From the NCBI GenBank assembly GCA_964584535.1, contig CAZPAX010000002.1:1-33356 (forward strand): a DNA stretch of 33,356 nt. The letters run 5' to 3'. Source of the stretch: an uncultured Eubacteriales bacterium (GTDB taxonomy: Bacteria > Acidobacteriota > Aminicenantia > Aminicenantales > CAZPAX01). Position 1 is the first letter of the stretch. Every line of letters begins with the position of its first letter. Positions 6,148-16,789 of this stretch are shown here, in pieces. Under the pieces are notes generated by a model that did not search any database, had not been told where the DNA came from, and worked only from the letters and a program-made list of their open reading frames with translations. The translations under genes and the position numbers were made by a program.

Positions 6148-8802
6148 ATGAAAAAATCAATTATTTTTTCTATAACACTATTTTTGATTTCAGCATTCAG
6201 TTTTCTAGCTATCTCTGTTCCTCAGGCTATTAGGGAGAAGCTCCCTTATCTCGATCCATCTTTGTCCATTGAAGAAAGGATCAAAGACTTGCTCAGCCGA
6301 ATGACAATCGAAGAAAAGATCGCCCAGCTCCAGTGCGAAATCAGGGAGGTTGAGGGGAGAAATATCATTGAAGGTAAAGGAGTTGGTGGACTGGGTGTCA
6401 TTCTCAGGCCTCTTGGTCCAGCCGAGGGAGCAGAAAAAGCAAATAGAATCCAGAAAATTGCTGAGACACAGACCCAGCTTGGAATTCCGATTATCATCCA
6501 TGATGAAGCTCTTCATGGCATTTGCGCCAAGGGAGGGACAAGCTTCCCTCAGGCTATCGGCCTGGCAGCCACCTGGAATCCTGAGCTCGTGGGGAGAGTT
6601 GCCTCGGTCATCGGCAAAGAGACTCGTTCAAGAGGCATTCACCAGGTTCTCTCTCCTGTGATCAATATCGCCAGGGATGTGAGATGGGGGAGAGTTGAGG
6701 AAACATATGGTGAAGACCCCTATCTTACTTCGCGCATTGGAGTTGCTTTCTGCAAGGGGATTGAAAAGGAGGGTGTCATTTCCACTCCAAAGCACTATGC
6801 AGCAAACGTGGGTGATGGTGGACGGGATAGCAATGCTATCCATTTTTCAGAAAGGCTGTTGCGGGAGATTTATTTTCCTGCCTTCAAAGCCTGCTTCCAA
6901 GAAGCTCAGGCTGGCTCTGTCATGGCCGCCTACAACTCATTGGATGGGTTGCCCTGTTCGGCAAATAGATGGCTGTTGACTGATATTCTCAGGGATGAAT
7001 GGGGATTCAGAGGATTTGTCGTCTCTGATTATGGTTCTGTCAACGGCATCTGGAGCAAGCATTCAACGGCTGCGACAAAAAAGGATGCGGCCAAACAGGC
7101 GATTGAAGCTGGCCTTGATGTCGAATTGCCAAGTGCCGATATCTATGGAGAGCCTCTGCTTCAAGCTTTTAATGAGGGTCTTGTTTCTGAAGCAACGATT
7201 GATAAAGCAGTCTGGCGGGTCTTAGAGGCGAAATTCCGTCTGGGCTTATTTGAAAATCACTATGTTGATCCCCAGCTTGCTTCCAGTCTGAATGATACCA
7301 AGGAGCACCGGGAGCTTGCTCTCCAAGCTGGCAGAGAAGCCATTGTTTTGTTGAAGAATGAAAACAATCTATTGCCTCTAGCTAAAAACATAAAAGCTAT
7401 TGCCGTTATTGGTCCCAATGCAGATTCGGTCCGGCTTGGAGGTTATAGTGGCTCTGGCATGAAAGTTGTGACAACCTTGGAAGGAATCAAAAACAAAGTT
7501 TCCCCTGCGACAAAGGTTTATTATGCCAAGGGATGTGAGCTTGAGGCAGCCCCTCTTCCCGCTATTCCTACAGAAAATTTGATTCCAGCTGGTATCGAAG
7601 AAGGAAGCCAGGGGCTTAAGGCCGAGTATTTCAACAACATGGATTTATCTGGCGAGCCAGACCTTGTCCGGATCGATAAACAGGTCAATTTCGATTGGGG
7701 CTCAGACTCGCCTGACCCCAAGATCAAAGCTGACCAGTTCTCTGTACGCTGGACAGGAAAGCTTGTTCCCAAAAGTTCCAATGTCTATAGTTTGTGCCTC
7801 ACAACTGACGATGGCCTCCGCTTTTATCTGGATGGCAAACTCCTTGTTGACAAATGGTCTGACCGGGCTCCCACCTCAGACTATGTGAATGTGACACTCG
7901 AGGCAGGTCGGAGCTATGACCTCCGCATCGATTATTACGAGAATGGCGGCGGCGCTTTTGCCAGCCTCGGCTGGGACCTCAAGCCAAGCATTGACGTCGC
8001 TATTCAGGAAGCAATAGAAGTTGCCAAGAAATCTTCAGTCGCTTTGATTGTCGCAGGTGTTGTTGAAGGTGAGGGAAGGGATCGCTCTAGGCTTGACCTT
8101 CCCCATCCTCAGGAAGATTTGATTAAGGCAATTTCTGAGACAGGAGTGCCGACAGTCGTCATCTTGATCAATGGCAGCGCTGTGACCATGGCTAGCTGGA
8201 TCGGCGGGGTTCAGGCCATTATTGAGGCCTGGTATCCAGGAGAAGAAGGAGGAAATGCGATTGCTGATGTTCTCTTTGGCGATTACAACCCTTCTGGAAG
8301 ATTGCCAATCACCTTTCCTCAGTCTGTGGGACAGGTTCCTCTTTATTCCAATTACAAACCTACTGGCCGGGGATATGACTATGTGGAGGCGAGTGGAAAG
8401 CCGCTGTTTGCCTTTGGCTATGGGCTTAGCTACACAAGATTTGAATATAGCAACCTTCAGGTCTCCCCTCAGAAAATTGGTCCTTCAGAGGAAATAACAG
8501 TCAGTGTTGATATCCAGAATGTTGGGGAGCGGAGAGGAGATGAGGTTGTCCAGCTCTATTTGAGAGACGTGGTCTCCAGTTTCATTCGACCACTTAAAGA
8601 ACTACGAGGGTTCCAGAGAATCAGTCTTGAGCCGAATGAGAAAAAGACAGTCACCTTTATCCTTAAACCTGAAGATTTCTCTTTTCTCGACCTTCACTTG
8701 AAGAGTATTATTGAGCCTGGGGTCTTTGAAATCATGGCCGGAGCCTCATCAGAGGATATCCAATTAAAATCAAGCTTTGAAGTTTTGTCTTTAAAAAATT
8801 GA
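6148..8802 (+). CDS. Glycoside hydrolase family 3 beta-glucosidase with inserted PA14 domain and C-terminal Fn3-like domain
   Basis: Start at MKKSIIFSITLFLISAFSFLA (signal peptide). GH3 hallmarks are KHYAANVGDGGRD and GFRGFVVSDYGS (nucleophile Asp). The PA14 block is GLKAEYFNNMDLSGEP...FSVRWTGKL...YENGGGAFASLGW. The C-terminal beta-sandwich includes VDIQNVGERRGDEVVQLYL. Confidence 0.9.
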   Translation: MKKSIIFSITLFLISAFSFLAISVPQAIREKLPYLDPSLSIEERIKDLLSRMTIEEKIAQLQCEIREVEGRNIIEGKGVGGLGVILRPLGPAEGAEKANRIQKIAETQTQLGIPIIIHDEALHGICAKGGTSFPQAIGLAATWNPELVGRVASVIGKETRSRGIHQVLSPVINIARDVRWGRVEETYGEDPYLTSRIGVAFCKGIEKEGVISTPKHYAANVGDGGRDSNAIHFSERLLREIYFPAFKACFQEAQAGSVMAAYNSLDGLPCSANRWLLTDILRDEWGFRGFVVSDYGSVNGIWSKHSTAATKKDAAKQAIEAGLDVELPSADIYGEPLLQAFNEGLVSEATIDKAVWRVLEAKFRLGLFENHYVDPQLASSLNDTKEHRELALQAGREAIVLLKNENNLLPLAKNIKAIAVIGPNADSVRLGGYSGSGMKVVTTLEGIKNKVSPATKVYYAKGCELEAAPLPAIPTENLIPAGIEEGSQGLKAEYFNNMDLSGEPDLVRIDKQVNFDWGSDSPDPKIKADQFSVRWTGKLVPKSSNVYSLCLTTDDGLRFYLDGKLLVDKWSDRAPTSDYVNVTLEAGRSYDLRIDYYENGGGAFASLGWDLKPSIDVAIQEAIEVAKKSSVALIVAGVVEGEGRDRSRLDLPHPQEDLIKAISETGVPTVVILINGSAVTMASWIGGVQAIIEAWYPGEEGGNAIADVLFGDYNPSGRLPITFPQSVGQVPLYSNYKPTGRGYDYVEASGKPLFAFGYGLSYTRFEYSNLQVSPQKIGPSEEITVSVDIQNVGERRGDEVVQLYLRDVVSSFIRPLKELRGFQRISLEPNEKKTVTFILKPEDFSFLDLHLKSIIEPGVFEIMAGASSEDIQLKSSFEVLSLKN

Positions 8803-11329: not shown

Positions 11330-12751
11330 GTGAAAGAAAACCCGGAAAAGTCAGTGACACTTCTTTCCAAGCTCTTGGATCTGGTCCGTGAAGAGATTCC
11401 TTCCAGCCGGGCCTTATTTCTGGTCATCAATAGAAAGAATGAAGTTGTTTTTAAGAAAGCTTGGAAGATGAATGAGGCAGAGAATGATGGTCTCAGTTCT
11501 ACCGTAATTAGAAGAGCCCTGGAGAAAAAGCACCCAATCCTCATCTCTAACCTCGAAGCTGATCCCTGCTTCGGTCATGACAAGAGTATTTTCAGGAAGG
11601 ACTGGGGGAGTATCCTTTGTCTTCCTCTCATCATCGAGAACAAGCCCGTTGCTGCTATTTATCTTGACCGGAAAACTGGCCTTGATCCGTTCTCGACCCA
11701 AAATCTAGAGCTCTTAACAGTCCTTTCCAGACCTATTCACTTCATTTTGGGAAATAATTTTGAGTTCAAAGATTTGAAGGAAGAGGACCCTGCTGGTGTA
11801 AAAGATTTTCTCATTGGACAGAGCAAAGCTCTTCGTCGGATTCGGAATCTCGTCGAAAGGGTGAAAGATAGCAGTGCTCCGGTGCTTATTTGTGGAGAGA
11901 GCGGCACAGGAAAGGAACTGATTGCCAGAGCCATTCATCACAGAGGAGCAAGACGTAAAGGTCAATTTGTGGCTGTCAATTGTGGAGCTATACCAGACCA
12001 TCTCCTGGAGAGTGAATTGTTCGGGCATGTCAAAGGAGCATTTACTGGCGCTTTAAGAGATAAAGCCGGACTAATTGAAGAGGCAAGCGGAGGAACATTT
12101 TTCCTGGATGAGATAGGAGATCTCACTCTGCAGCTTCAGGCGAAGCTTCTTCGACTTATCCAGGAAAAGGAGATCAGAAGGGTAGGGGAGAATCGGACTC
12201 GCTCTGTAGATGTCCGGTTCATCAGCGCTACAAACAAAGATATTGAGAAAGAGACTGAGCAAAAAAATTTTCGAGAAGACCTCTATTACCGCCTCAGAAT
12301 CGTCACCATTGAGATTCCTCCTTTAAGGGAAAGGAAAGAGGATCTCATCCTTCTCCTCGACTATTTTGTGGACAACTACTGCCAGGAGATGAAAAGGGAA
12401 AGAGCTTATTTTTCGCCGCGGTGCCTGGAGCTTCTGATAAATTATTCCTGGCCAGGAAATGTCAGAGAGCTCCAGAATGAGATCCAGAGATGTCTTATTT
12501 TTTCTGGAGAAGACAATTTTATAAGGGAAGAATACCTCTCTCCTAAAATAAATCCGCAGGGAGAAACATCACAAAACTCATCCTTTAGTTACTCTGCGGC
12601 AAAAGCGGAATTTGAAAGCCGTTTTTTGCGTGAAGCTCTCCATCGCTGTGATTATAATAAATCGAAAACAGCAGAGGAGATTGGCCTTAGCAGGCAGGGG
12701 CTATTCAAATTAATGAAAAAACATGGAATTGAAGCTAAAAGGAAGAGCTGA
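11330..12751 (+). CDS. Sigma-54-dependent transcriptional activator (GAF sensor + AAA+ + Fis-type HTH)
   Basis: GTG start. N-terminal GAF-like domain (...[21 protein letters not shown]). Walker A is GESGTGKE, the GAFTGA loop is intact ([10 protein letters not shown]), and Walker B is FFLDEIGD. The C-terminal HTH is [24 protein letters not shown]. There is no receiver domain. Confidence 0.9.
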
Positions 12752-12793: not shown

Positions 12794-13072
12794 ATGGAAA
12801 AGAAAAAAGAAAAGGGAAATATTTTTGAGATAGTCTGTCCCCACTGTGCATCTGTGCTCTGGGTCGATGCTCTGAGGGAGGAAGTGATTCAGTCAGAGAA
12901 AAGAGGGGCGAAGAAAAAAGAATCTCTGGATGAGCTTCTCTTGAAGGAAAAAAAGAGGACAGAGGAATTTGAGCGAAAGTTTGAGGCAACAGCAGAGCTT
13001 GAGAAAAAGAAGCTGGAGAAAGCGAAGGAGAAATTTAGGAAAGCCCTCTCTGACCTGGATAAAGGAGATTAA
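12794..13072 (+). CDS. Small Lys/Glu-rich protein with a single CxxC knuckle and a predicted coiled-coil tail
   Basis: 92 aa: MEKKKEKGNIFEIVCPHCASVLWVD followed by a highly charged helical region. It starts 42 nt after the activator gene on the same strand. I recognise no family. Confidence 0.55.
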   Translation: MEKKKEKGNIFEIVCPHCASVLWVDALREEVIQSEKRGAKKKESLDELLLKEKKRTEEFERKFEATAELEKKKLEKAKEKFRKALSDLDKGD

Positions 13073-14522: not shown

Positions 14523-15725
14523 TTATCTTGAACTAAAAGTCCCTTTGGCCATGAGCTTCCCATCAGCCATCATCTTCTGTCCCATGGCAAAGGAGTCCTT
14601 CAACTCGTAGTCTTTATCGAGCAAGATGAGGTCAGCATCTTTTCCCACTTTGATTTCTCCTTTTTGACTGAGTTTGTAAAAGAAAGCGGCGTTTGTCGAA
14701 AAGAGTCTTGTGGCATTTTTCAGGTCAAGAATATTTTTTTTGACAAGCTGCCGGAAGTTTCGAAAAAGATTTTTTTGGGTGGCAATGGTCAGGCCGATGA
14801 GCTTTCCCTTTTTGTCAAAAACAGGAAGACTCCCGTTGCTATCCGAACTGATTGTGACATGGTCAAGGGGAACTCCTCTTTCCAGGAAAAGGCGCACGGC
14901 TTTTTCAATGCTGAATTCGCCATTGCCTTCAGATTCGGCATCAATTCCAGCAGTCAAATCGATGCTGCCACCCTGGAGGACAAACTCAATCGCCTCTTCA
15001 AGAAGGGCTCGATTGCGGTTAACATGAGTTGGGATGACCTGGGTGGCCGGGATTTCTGTTTCTTTGATCAGCCTGAAGAGCATTTCCAGCCGCCTTTCCC
15101 CATCCCCGAGGTGGAGATGGAGAACGCCAGCTTTTCCGCCAAGCATTCCTCCTACCCGGCACTCTGAGGCGAGACGGGAGATTTCTTCAAATGTCGGCTG
15201 GGAGGAGCGATGGTCGGAGATAGCTATTTCTCCTGCTCCAATGACTTTTTCGATGAGGACAAGGTCAGAGCGGACGCTTCCTGTAATTGTCTTGACCGGA
15301 ATCTCGTAGGAGCCAGAAAAGATATAGGTTGTGATTCCTTCTATTTCCAGGGCCCTGGCCTTAGCCAGGAGGGATTCCATGTGCCTGGTTACTGCATCAG
15401 TTCCCAGGCAGCCGATGAGGGTCGTGACTCCACTGGAGATAATCTCTTCCACAGTGATCTCAGGTGCCCTTGTCGCTGGCCCTCCCTCTCCTCCTCCGCC
15501 CAGAATATGGACATGAGGGTCAATTAGGCCGGGAATGACAATCTTTTCTGAAGCATGCAGAATTTCGACATCAATTCCTTTGATTGCGATTTCTCCAGGC
15601 TCGGCAATGGCCCCAATTTTGTCCCCCAGGAGGAGAATATCTTTTTTGCCAAGAGGCTCTGGTGCAAAGACTGAACCCTGGCTGATGAGAGTAATCAATT
15701 TTTCCTCCTTTTTAAAACAATTCAT
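14523..15725 (-). CDS. iadA: Isoaspartyl dipeptidase (beta-aspartyl peptidase), amidohydrolase superfamily
   Basis: GLIDPHVHILGGGGEGGPATRAPE is the characteristic IadA N-terminal metal-binding segment. Length is 400 aa. No Shine-Dalgarno sequence precedes the ATG. Confidence 0.85.
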   Translation of the reverse strand: MNCFKKEEKLITLISQGSVFAPEPLGKKDILLLGDKIGAIAEPGEIAIKGIDVEILHASEKIVIPGLIDPHVHILGGGGEGGPATRAPEITVEEIISSGVTTLIGCLGTDAVTRHMESLLAKARALEIEGITTYIFSGSYEIPVKTITGSVRSDLVLIEKVIGAGEIAISDHRSSQPTFEEISRLASECRVGGMLGGKAGVLHLHLGDGERRLEMLFRLIKETEIPATQVIPTHVNRNRALLEEAIEFVLQGGSIDLTAGIDAESEGNGEFSIEKAVRLFLERGVPLDHVTISSDSNGSLPVFDKKGKLIGLTIATQKNLFRNFRQLVKKNILDLKNATRLFSTNAAFFYKLSQKGEIKVGKDADLILLDKDYELKDSFAMGQKMMADGKLMAKGTFSSR

Positions 15726-15730
15726 TGGCT

Positions 15731-15759
15731 AAATTATCACTTCTTTTTTTCATTTACAA
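15731..15759 (-). promoter_or_regulatory. Candidate extended -10 promoter for iadA (TTGTAA-N17-TGnTAATTT), geometry compatible with a leaderless mRNA
   Basis: On the minus strand, TTGTAA is at 15759-15754, the 17-nt spacer ends in TGA, and TAATTT is at 15736-15731. Only 5 nt separate the -10 box from ATG 15725, and there is no SD. Confidence 0.35.
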
Positions 15760-15766
15760 GATTTTT

Positions 15767-15988
15767 CGGGGTCAGACTTTTCTTTTTTTTATTATTTACT
15801 GTAAAAAGGATTTCGGGGTCAGACATCTGGGATAAATTTTGGGGTCAGACATTGCCATGGAGAGGAGAACAGTGCATGCCCATGATTTGCTCTCACCCCT
15901 ATGATAATGTCTGACCCCGATTCCCCAGATGTCTGACCCCAACTCCAAGAACCTCAGTAAATAATAAAACTTTTAAAAGTCTGACCCC
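15767..15988. mobile_element. MITE-like non-coding palindromic element with six GGGGTCAGAC copies, flanked by 9-bp direct repeats AAGATTTTT
   Basis: GGGGTCAGAC starts at 15768, 15815 and 15841. Its complement GTCTGACCCC starts at 15909, 15931 and 15979. Perfect inverted blocks are 15768-15781/15975-15988, 15787-15801/15955-15969, 15815-15831/15924-15940 and 15841-15853/15906-15918. A central GCATGC lies at 15874-15879. AAGATTTTT is directly repeated at 15758-15766 and 15989-15997. Confidence 0.5.
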
Positions 15989-15994
15989 AAGATT

Positions 15995-16023
15995 TTTACA
16001 TTTTTTTTTAATTTGGCTAAAAT
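15995..16023 (+). promoter_or_regulatory. Candidate promoter for the acyltransferase gene (TTTACA-N17-TAAAAT)
   Basis: TTTACA at 15995-16000, a 17-nt spacer containing a T9 run, and TAAAAT at 16018-16023. The -10 box ends 1 nt before ATG 16025 and 7 nt before ATG 16031. No SD is present. Confidence 0.35.
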
Positions 16024-16024
16024 A

Positions 16025-16789
16025 ATGAAGATGCCGACCTTTGAAGAAGAATTGAAAAGACTCGAGCCTGCCATAAAAGGATTGTGCAATTTTGCCCTCC
16101 TCGGAAAAAAAATCGACGTCAAAGGAAAGGAAAATTTTATCAAAGAGGGGCCCAACATTATTATTGGCAATCATATCGGAAGTTTCAAAGATGTTGCCAC
16201 CTTGCTCAAGATCGTCCCTCGGCCGATTTTCTTTATGTCCAATAAAATGATCTTCAACAAAGATGAGTTCGGTTTTCTCATCCGCAAACATCTTCAGAGG
16301 CACCTGAAGAATTTTGGACTCTTCCTCAATCTCTTGCTCAATCCTTTTAAATCTCTCTTTGTCCACTACATCTCCTCCAATCTGGCCAAAGTTGGGACTA
16401 TTCCTGTAGACCTGTATCAGACAAAAAAGGAAAATATAGAAAAATGCCAGGAATATCTCAAGAATAAGAGAGCCATCATTGCCCTTCAGGGAAGAGGCCG
16501 GGTCCATAAAAAAGATCCCCACCCTTATGTGAGATCATTCAAGAAAGGCACTTCCATCATCGCTTACAATTTGTACGAGATGGAAGGAATGGTTGTTCCC
16601 GTTACCCCTCTGGCCTTCTATGGCACGCAGATTCCTTTTCTGGTTCCTGGAAGAATCAGGGTTAATGTCGGAGGCCCGATGTTTATCTCGGATTATCTAG
16701 GAGACGAGTTATCGGAAACCGTGGAGAGATTCAAGAGTGCCTTGGAGACTAGAGTCAAAAGCCTTTTCTTTGAGTTTCTCAAACGCTAG
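16025..16789 (+). CDS. Lysophospholipid (1-acyl-sn-glycerol-3-phosphate) acyltransferase family protein
   Basis: The GNHIGSFKD block resembles the acyltransferase NHxxxxD motif but has one extra residue. Size and downstream blocks are PlsC-like. The start is ambiguous: ATG 16025 or ATG 16031. The track's TTG at 16013 lies inside the putative promoter. Confidence 0.7.
   Translation: MKMPTFEEELKRLEPAIKGLCNFALLGKKIDVKGKENFIKEGPNIIIGNHIGSFKDVATLLKIVPRPIFFMSNKMIFNKDEFGFLIRKHLQRHLKNFGLFLNLLLNPFKSLFVHYISSNLAKVGTIPVDLYQTKKENIEKCQEYLKNKRAIIALQGRGRVHKKDPHPYVRSFKKGTSIIAYNLYEMEGMVVPVTPLAFYGTQIPFLVPGRIRVNVGGPMFISDYLGDELSETVERFKSALETRVKSLFFEFLKR

Follow-up and report, generated by a model that had tools for sequence, protein, structure and literature searches.

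The genes of the TIRYT family are flanked by inverted repeats with the consensus GGGGWSAS, many of which occur in dimers or clusters (Di Nocera et al. 2013, PMC3733652). TIRYT proteins form subclass 2.1 of the TnpA-Y1 enzymes (Quentin et al. 2018, PMC6006769). The same proteins have been described as group 1 of the repetitive extragenic palindrome (REP)-associated tyrosine transposases (RAYTs), the largest and most widely distributed group, whose flanking 16-mers are moderately repeated, with about 12 per replicon (Bertels et al. 2017, PMC5581495). HUH/Y1 chemistry makes no target duplication, as established for IS200/IS605 and TnpA-REP (summarised in PMC6006769). In this study, we analysed a 33,356-bp stretch of DNA (hereafter the window) from an uncultured bacterium placed in the Aminicenantales (contig CAZPAX010000002.1, positions 1 to 33,356). 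A nested palindrome of 221 bp (15768-15988) lies in the window between two divergent genes, for a metallo-type beta-aspartyl (isoaspartyl) dipeptidase (iadA) and for an acyltransferase. We found that the palindrome is built from six copies of one 10-bp head, GGGGTCAGAC, that its modules recur at unrelated loci, and that the head is linked to Y1 genes in other phyla. The element is probably a gene-less cluster of terminal inverted repeats (TIRs) of the TIRtron/TIRYT type (a "mini-TIRtron"), REP/REPIN-like and tied to TnpA-Y1 subclass 2.1 (RAYT group 1).

Architecture of the element

Three units headed by GGGGTCAGAC on the plus strand are followed in the palindrome by three on the minus strand, with the GGGG ends facing outward (head-out). 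Exact heads start at 15768, 15815, and 15841 on the plus strand and at 15909, 15931, and 15979 on the minus strand, and no further exact copy was found elsewhere in the 33,356-bp window. When up to one mismatch was allowed, the window contained 9 matches, compared with 1.17 ± 1.16 in 100 shuffled sequences, none of which reached 9. The left arm matches the reverse complement of the right arm in perfect blocks of 14, 15, 17, and 13 bp, starting at 15768, 15787, 15815, and 15841, respectively. The identity of the two arms is 70% overall with gaps counted, and the centre is GCATGC at 15874-15879. An initial annotation of this DNA had described the six copies, the four blocks, the centre, and a 9-bp sequence, AAGATTTTT, on both sides of the element, and had noticed no other copy of the 10-mer in the window. 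All of these proved exact.

The outermost unit A (GGGGTCAGACTTTTCTTTTTTTTATTATTTACTG, 15768-15801, plus strand) is 85% complementary to unit A' (15955-15988, minus strand), which reads GGGGTCAGACTTTTAAAAGTTTTATTATTTACTG on its own strand. Near-identical 34-nt units to A' occur at two other loci (L149, 4242-4275, and L246, 15-48; loci from other assemblies are numbered with the prefix L). Unit B (GGGGTCAGACATCTGGG, 15815-15831, plus strand) forms a perfect 17-bp arm with its inverted partner B' (15924-15940, minus strand), and is also found in L162/L253 and L135. The core C-C' (15841-15918) is an imperfect 78-bp hairpin with two GGGGTCAGACATT heads 58 nt apart, and the head-to-head spacing is also 58 nt in the core of the orthologous locus L124. 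B, C, C', and B' together make up a 126-bp module (15815-15940) that recurs as a unit at another locus. The single-strand fold of the region is one long hairpin of -121.5 kcal/mol, compared with -55.6 ± 4.25 kcal/mol for shuffled sequences (z = -15.5). A single window unit (GGGGTCAGACATC/ATT/TTT) shows only weak self-pairing, and the strong pairing forms between a unit and its distal inverted copy. The six heads are perfect (60/60 bases) and the spacers between them are divergent, which suggests that the heads are still under constraint.

The orthologous locus has a homologous nested palindrome in two independent assemblies (L124 from ENA and L125 from Logan), and a second locus with a nested palindrome was recovered in seven assemblies from different samples. 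Because these homologues recur in independent assemblies, the palindrome is not an assembly artefact. No convincing open reading frame (ORF) was found in the element, which contains spurious ORFs of up to 50 aa and the tail of one antisense ORF. No Rfam 15 family matched at its gathering score. Hairpin models of miRNA precursors scored 22-38 bits against gathering scores of 85-150, and a known structured RNA was rejected, all Rfam 15 matches being below threshold.

Two side observations concern sequences of this kind. Frames stay open through repeat units, as in the N-terminal part of an ORF in L091 (489-1292) and in the window at 15796-15948 (minus strand), and they encode peptides such as NWGQTPI, IGVRPQ, and GSDI; a 57-aa repeat-derived product is present in a public protein collection (P0121). 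Repeats like the window element therefore generate spurious gene calls. The window also contains, at 7698-7719 within a GH3 glycosidase gene, a facing pair of near-matches, GGGCTCAGAC and GCCTGACCCC, which are separated by 2 bp and each differ from the motif at one position; the pair is probably due to chance.

Dispersal of the modules in the lineage

A scan of metagenomes for two heads followed by A/T gave at least 120 matches, among them three low-GC contigs from one Joint Genome Institute (JGI) sample, Ga0129297. Modules of the window element were found at four loci on Aminicenantes-like contigs, namely at iadA, miaB, queH, and another amidohydrolase gene, these being metagenome contigs and not one closed genome. 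The neighbours at the iadA and miaB loci are both closest to Aminicenantes proteins, including the miaB protein of the module-bearing locus. All four copies lie directly 5' of start codons.

The 126-bp module matches L253 (3553-3678, the same sequence as L162, 4472-4597) at 113 of 126 positions (90%). This copy lies between a C_GCAxxG gene and miaB in seven independent assemblies (L253-L259; 3546-3701 in L253). The core C-C' is 92% identical to the miaB-locus core (L253) and 88% identical to a partial copy in L149. Upstream of queH, L149 has an A'-type unit and, after it, a C unit; in L135, a B'-type unit precedes C upstream of the other amidohydrolase gene. The two contigs terminate within the repeat, as is typical of assembly at multi-copy sequence. 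Although C and C' are unlike, each of the two arms is conserved between loci, and whole modules were therefore copied, not re-created locally.

Relatives without the element at the miaB locus were also found. In an 83% relative (L260) the two genes overlap (taATG, 1516-1520), and in a 75% relative (L261/L262) they are separated by an unrelated 88-bp spacer. Given the gene overlap in L260, the insertion at miaB split a gene pair that was probably translationally coupled. At the module-bearing locus, TATAAT stands 14 nt upstream of the miaB ATG, within a flank that resembles a truncated A arm.

Further assemblies of the miaB locus gave two side observations. L246 (1-110) shows extra one-sided units, consisting of an A' unit and the degenerate heads GGGATCAGAT and GGCGTCAGAC. 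Its outer flank differs from that of the seven other miaB-locus assemblies, either because L246 is a genuine strain variant or because two sequences were joined chimerically at the repeat; L246 was recovered in a protein database search as a single match to a spurious 50-aa ORF crossing the element, and we did not build on it. L256 (ENA contig ERZ781360) begins, at 1-46, with a Nextera adapter, TCGTCGGCAGCGTCAGATGTGTATAAGAGACAG, left untrimmed in the public assembly.

Association of the head motif with Y1 genes outside the lineage

With one genome searched per GTDB species, pairs of heads separated by 10-40 bp were found at no fewer than 120 loci in many phyla. The counts of units, clusters, and carriers given below refer to the matches listed. 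In most of the repeat families at these loci, the head is part of a longer palindrome, GGGGTCAGACCCC, which is framed by complementary A/T-rich feet. Arrays of units, both tandem and inverted, lie directly outside genes, and more than one locus came from each of several genomes. All-versus-all clustering of the ORFs from the first 120 loci returned common housekeeping families and a recurrent IS200-like Y1_Tnp family of about 240-340 aa. These proteins scored 27-81 bits against NCBIfam NF047646 (REP-associated tyrosine transposase; cut-off 80): one reached the cut-off, four scored 68-77, the C-terminally truncated protein of L088 scored 51, and a fragment in L013 scored 27. With a hidden Markov model of the family, about 20 of 245 pattern-selected loci were carriers.

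Inverted GGGGTCAGAC units stand on both sides of the Y1 gene, plus on the left and minus on the right, at eight loci (L093, L096, L189, L165, L184, L244, L170, and L159). At the remaining Y1-bearing loci, the sequence covered one side of the gene. The motifs of the Y1 proteins, NH[VLFY]H, W[EQ]/FQ, and Y[VI]xLNP, are those of subclass 2.1 in Table 1 of PMC6006769. In the window, GGGGTCAG, the start of all six units, fits GGGGWSAS (W = T, S = C, A, S = G). Clusters with both orientations were head-out in 79 cases, head-in in 1, and mixed in 10. The head-out order is also the polarity around the Y1 genes and that of the window element. Because three units on each side face each other with their heads outward, as around TIRYT genes, the window element looks like a TIRtron without its gene.

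One example is a metagenome-assembled genome (MAG) of the Isosphaeraceae (L096, 358-2893), with 13 units upstream and 6 downstream of the Y1 gene. The initial annotation had compared the reiterated terminal motif of the window element to multi-site transposase-binding ends, and gene-carrying relatives such as this one are alike in that respect. A second, partial Y1 fragment (880-1125) lies within the upstream array of L096 and suggests a local duplication within the TIRtron. As a separate observation, seven loci from Acidobacteriota and Vicinamibacterales MAGs (L004, L006, L023, L057, L080, L112, and L115) carry spacerless head-to-tail arrays of the bare 11-mer GGGGTCAGACC in up to 8 copies, and L057 has 3 + 3 copies in inverted order.

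The sole low-GC match to the Y1 family was a partial gene at the edge of L231, an unrelated contig of 40% GC. Full-text literature searches with the 10-mer, 11-mers, and 9-mers returned primers and unrelated matches, none of them in REP/RAYT papers. Two patterns run against viral contigs gave one match and no match, and no phage link was seen.

Presence and absence at the iadA locus

Eight orthologous iadA-acyltransferase loci from other assemblies were compared, and both genes are divergent in all of them. The element is absent from 5 of the 8, with both promoters kept: L121 (81% protein identity), L247, L248/L249, and L250/L251 (76-77%). No head with up to one mismatch was found at these five loci. 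In the closest relative (L122/L123, 90%), all that stands at this point is a 27-bp remnant, GGGGTTAAACTTTTCTTTTTTTGCCCC; a degenerate A-like unit persists there in L122. A 79% relative (L124/L125) carries a two-pair version that reads GGGGTCAGACC ... GGGGTCATAC-58 nt-GTATGACCCC ... GGTCTGATCCC. A flip of the inner 78-bp unit of L124 relative to the window was considered and dropped, the identities of 68% flipped and 61% unflipped being too close to decide for a quasi-palindrome. Judged from these alignments, the variable presence at the site suits an old insertion that is decaying, shortening, and being lost. The initial annotation had derived an empty site, CATTTACAAGATTTTTACATTT, by removing the element and one copy of the 9-bp repeat. 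This was not seen in the relatives, and the closest empty one (L121) reads ...tttcaaaaatctcatcttgtaaat...

These data bear on another reading, in which the element is a decaying relic: an old REP-like insertion that is no longer mobilised, has no function in cis, and persists through the homogenisation of arms that is expected of long palindromes. The presence of the element, in diverged form, in the 79% relative speaks for some age. Copy density is apparently low, with one copy in the 33-kb window, none in 21 kb of L121, and none in 59 kb of L247-L251, and a search of about 255 kb of lineage sequence gave no Y1 gene. However, all six heads are perfect, and the C and C' arms, which are asymmetric, have each been kept from locus to locus. 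Copies with 90% identity at different loci in the same metagenome, together with contigs that break inside them, suggest recent copying. A relic is therefore unlikely, and the family may still be active in this lineage.

The flanking direct repeat

The left copy of AAGATTTTT (15758-15766, plus strand) is separated from the GGGG by one extra C. The right copy (15989-15997, plus strand) abuts the element and overlaps the -35 box of the acyltransferase gene. We compared the longest direct substring common to the two 14-nt flanks of each head-out cluster with that of mismatched flank pairs. Among 74 head-out clusters, the window was the only one with a flank repeat longer than 6 bp (9 bp). The other 73 shared 2-6 bp, equal to the null, in which 0 of 1,480 mismatched pairs reached 9 bp. 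No direct repeat abuts the miaB-locus copy, where an imperfect 8-mer pair, TATTATAA and TATAATAA, lies 6-7 nt outside the ends. For the L124 copy, the two flanks share ATCTT and nothing longer; this stands 1 nt from the element on the left and is shifted by 7 nt on the right. In the empty site of L121, both half-sequences are already adjacent, aaaaatctc being directly followed by atcttgtaa, and L122 retains 7/9 of the repeat. Since the flanks of all but one of the 74 head-out clusters are at chance level, a target-site duplication was rejected as a family trait, in agreement with HUH/Y1 chemistry. The 9-bp repeat of the window is real and statistically unusual. It is a single case, and the mechanism of the family does not account for it. 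It may be due to chance in the A/T-rich DNA of back-to-back promoters, or to an event specific to this locus.

The initial annotation had called the element a miniature inverted-repeat transposable element (MITE)-like insertion. In its classical form, this would be a deletion derivative of an insertion sequence (IS) with a DDE transposase, with GGGGTCAGAC as TIRs, AAGATTTTT as a 9-bp target-site duplication, and the internal motifs as extra transposase-binding sites. The inverted termini, the lack of an ORF, the dispersed copies, and the perfect repeat directly outside the outermost units, which no null pair equalled, all speak for it. One part of that call stands, namely that the element is non-autonomous, dispersed, and mobile, being absent or reduced in most relatives and represented by modules of about 90% identity at three unrelated loci. 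The other part, the DDE-type model of TIRs plus duplication, fails on the flanks of the other 73 clusters, on the miaB-locus and L124 copies, and on the empty site of L121. Likewise, the copies predicted at unrelated loci do exist, at miaB, queH, and the amidohydrolase gene, but not with a 9-bp duplication at each, as the miaB locus shows. A DDE-type parent with GGGGTCAGAC ends would also be expected under this model. The Y1 gene was the only recurrent gene family between such ends in the ORF clustering of the first 120 loci, and L126-L245 were searched for Y1 only, not for DDE transposases. A classical MITE is therefore very unlikely.

Promoters and neighbouring genes

The iadA gene (14523-15698, minus strand) has a putative promoter at 15733-15759 on the minus strand, with a -35 box TTGTAA (reverse complement of 15754-15759), a 15-nt spacer, and a -10 box GATAAT (reverse complement of 15733-15738). 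The pattern TTGWAA-N15-GATAAY is kept at the same place in L121, L122, L124, L247, L248, and L250. On the other side, the acyltransferase gene starts from 16025 on the plus strand, and its putative promoter (15995-16023, plus strand) reads TTTACA, 17 nt, TAAAAT, with 10/12 matches in a consensus scan. This arrangement of TTGAAT, TTGAAA, or TTTACA followed by TAAAAT is conserved across the orthologous loci. Two back-to-back promoters are thus plausible and conserved, as judged from the alignments. The element had been placed between two divergent promoters in the initial annotation, and it sits exactly between the two -35 boxes, which are 10-34 bp apart in element-free relatives and about 235 bp apart in the window. 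The insertion moves the promoters apart by about 220 bp and replaces their upstream A/T tracts; it might affect their activity, and it provides a natural experiment on promoter context.

A six-site operator array for a dimeric regulator of iadA and the acyltransferase gene was the alternative reading in the initial annotation. In this or an enhancer array, the product of a syntenic sigma-54 activator gene (11330-12751) would be one candidate for the regulator. Six conserved 10-mers with differing spacers between divergent promoters suit such an array, as does a related palindrome at the same site in the 79% relative, but it is extremely improbable. Five relatives lack the element and keep the promoters, the gene order, and the activator gene, which would not be expected of an operator on which these promoters depend. 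The same modules lie at unrelated loci (miaB, queH, and another amidohydrolase gene), and arrays of this 10-mer occur in many phyla, where copies also stand on both sides of Y1 genes. A binding array for the sigma-54 activator was rejected on the same ground, the relatives keeping the activator gene without the element.

Other observations concern the neighbourhood. The nearest named homologues of the neighbouring genes belong to Candidatus Aminicenantes. At 16018-16033 of the window, the putative -10 box TAAAAT of the acyltransferase gene is separated by 1 nt from the first ATG (16025) and by 7 nt from the second (16031). From this position relative to the ATGs, the acyltransferase mRNA may be leaderless and start at the second ATG. 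Between the genes for a Na+/H+ antiporter and the sigma-54 activator, the window contains a 92-aa ORF with no Pfam match (12794-13072, plus strand). Counterparts of the same length at the same position were called in L121, L249, L250, and L251, and the product appears to be a conserved small protein.

Proposed mechanism and significance

We return to the preferred reading, a gene-less TIR-repeat cluster of the TIRtron type that is probably moved in trans by an HUH/Y1 enzyme. In the proposed mechanism, a Y1 enzyme encoded elsewhere in the genome would recognise the heads on single-stranded DNA, on which the arms would fold into one long hairpin. The enzyme would then cut and rejoin the DNA without target duplication. 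By this cut-and-rejoin step, whole modules (78, 126, or 221 bp) would be copied to new permissive intergenic sites and occasionally be lost again. A more far-reaching proposal is that subclass 2.1 has a near-invariant cognate site across phyla (an A/T-rich foot plus GGGGTCAGAC(C)), which builds strictly head-out nested hairpin arrays that expand, contract, and are copied as modules, and that the window holds a gene-less Aminicenantes array kept perfect by a still-active enzyme. We advance this proposal tentatively, as something that may well be so, short of being probable.

Several points weigh against the preferred reading. A subclass 2.1 Y1 gene was not detected in the window or in the lineage-related loci of about 255 kb, which are a small fraction of a genome. 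The lineage units (GGGGTCAGACAT and GGGGTCAGACTT) are A+T-richer and poor hairpins alone, unlike the common GGGGTCAGACCCC units elsewhere. The perfect 9-bp repeat at the window copy is not predicted by the HUH/Y1 mechanism. Subclass 2.1 enzymes are not known to have been characterised biochemically. The scans needed the exact 10-mer and gave counts that are lower bounds, which makes the breadth of the family and the enrichment figures rough, and further copies in the source metagenome were probably missed. Finally, Quentin et al. (2018, PMC6006769) reported that they had found no adjacent REP-like sequences for genes of subclass 2.1.

The six-site palindrome is neither an operator nor a structured RNA, and it should be masked as a repeat in promoter and RNA prediction. 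The TIRYT or subclass 2.1 Y1 enzymes gain a concrete, widely shared DNA motif and a fixed array polarity (79 to 1). This constancy of the head across phyla and this polarity are the most useful by-products of the analysis. Examples of module gain and loss at orthologous sites, including those in a candidate phylum, ease the design of binding, cleavage, and mobility tests. If the near-invariant cognate site and the active enzyme hold true, an orphan enzyme class would become a system with a defined and directly testable DNA substrate.

Comparison with known systems

Correia/NEMIS MITEs, Tn7, and Mu have terminal inverted repeats; the MITEs are small and without an ORF, and the ends of Tn7 and Mu reiterate a transposase-binding site. 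All of them depend on DDE transposases and make a duplication of fixed length at every copy. The window family differs in this respect, since a fixed-length duplication was tested across it and not found. Palindrome-associated transposable elements (PATEs) are gene-less, MITE-like derivatives of IS200/IS605 that keep the ends recognised by a Y1 transposase and make no target duplications, and in this they resemble the window family. The left and right ends of IS200/IS605 are two dissimilar subterminal hairpins, whereas in the window one motif is reiterated in inverted copies.

REPINs and the REPs of RAYT groups 2 and 3 are closer. They are hairpins of inverted short repeats that are non-autonomous, extragenic, and dispersed (Bertels and Rainey 2011, PMC3116915; Nunvar et al. 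2010, PMC2817692), as is the window element. Their movement is attributed to a single-copy HUH/Y1 enzyme that is encoded between copies of these repeats, and they make no target duplication (PMC3116915; PMC2817692). Unlike a canonical REP or REPIN, the window units lack a GT[AG]G foot (criterion of PMC6006769) and begin with GGGG. A canonical unit of 20-40 nt is itself an imperfect palindrome, whereas the window units appear not to be self-contained palindromes, and their clusters are nested head-out, not single doublets. Canonical REPs and REPINs have tens to hundreds of copies per genome; the 33-kb window holds one copy of the element. The putative partner enzyme, at about 240-340 aa, is longer than the enzymes of RAYT groups 2 and 3 and has a C-terminal extension. 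Bacterial interspersed mosaic elements (BIMEs) of E. coli are likewise composite clusters of several REP-type units in one intergenic region. BIME units alternate in orientation at regular spacing (PMC2817692), whereas in the window family all plus units precede all minus units.

The closest match is with the TIR repeats of TIRtrons. The window copy differs from these in having three nested pairs, no gene, and a 9-bp flanking repeat, and no TIRYT gene was seen in the lineage sequence examined. Its units are also shifted towards A+T, with GACAT or GACTT in place of the usual GACCCC. Like the TIR repeats, the window family has a head that fits GGGGWSAS, forms intergenic dimers and clusters, has the polarity seen around the Y1 gene, apparently occurs in low to moderate copy number, and is widely spread among phyla. 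The class to which the element belongs is known, though little explored, and the element adds an example from an uncultivated phylum to it without founding a new class.

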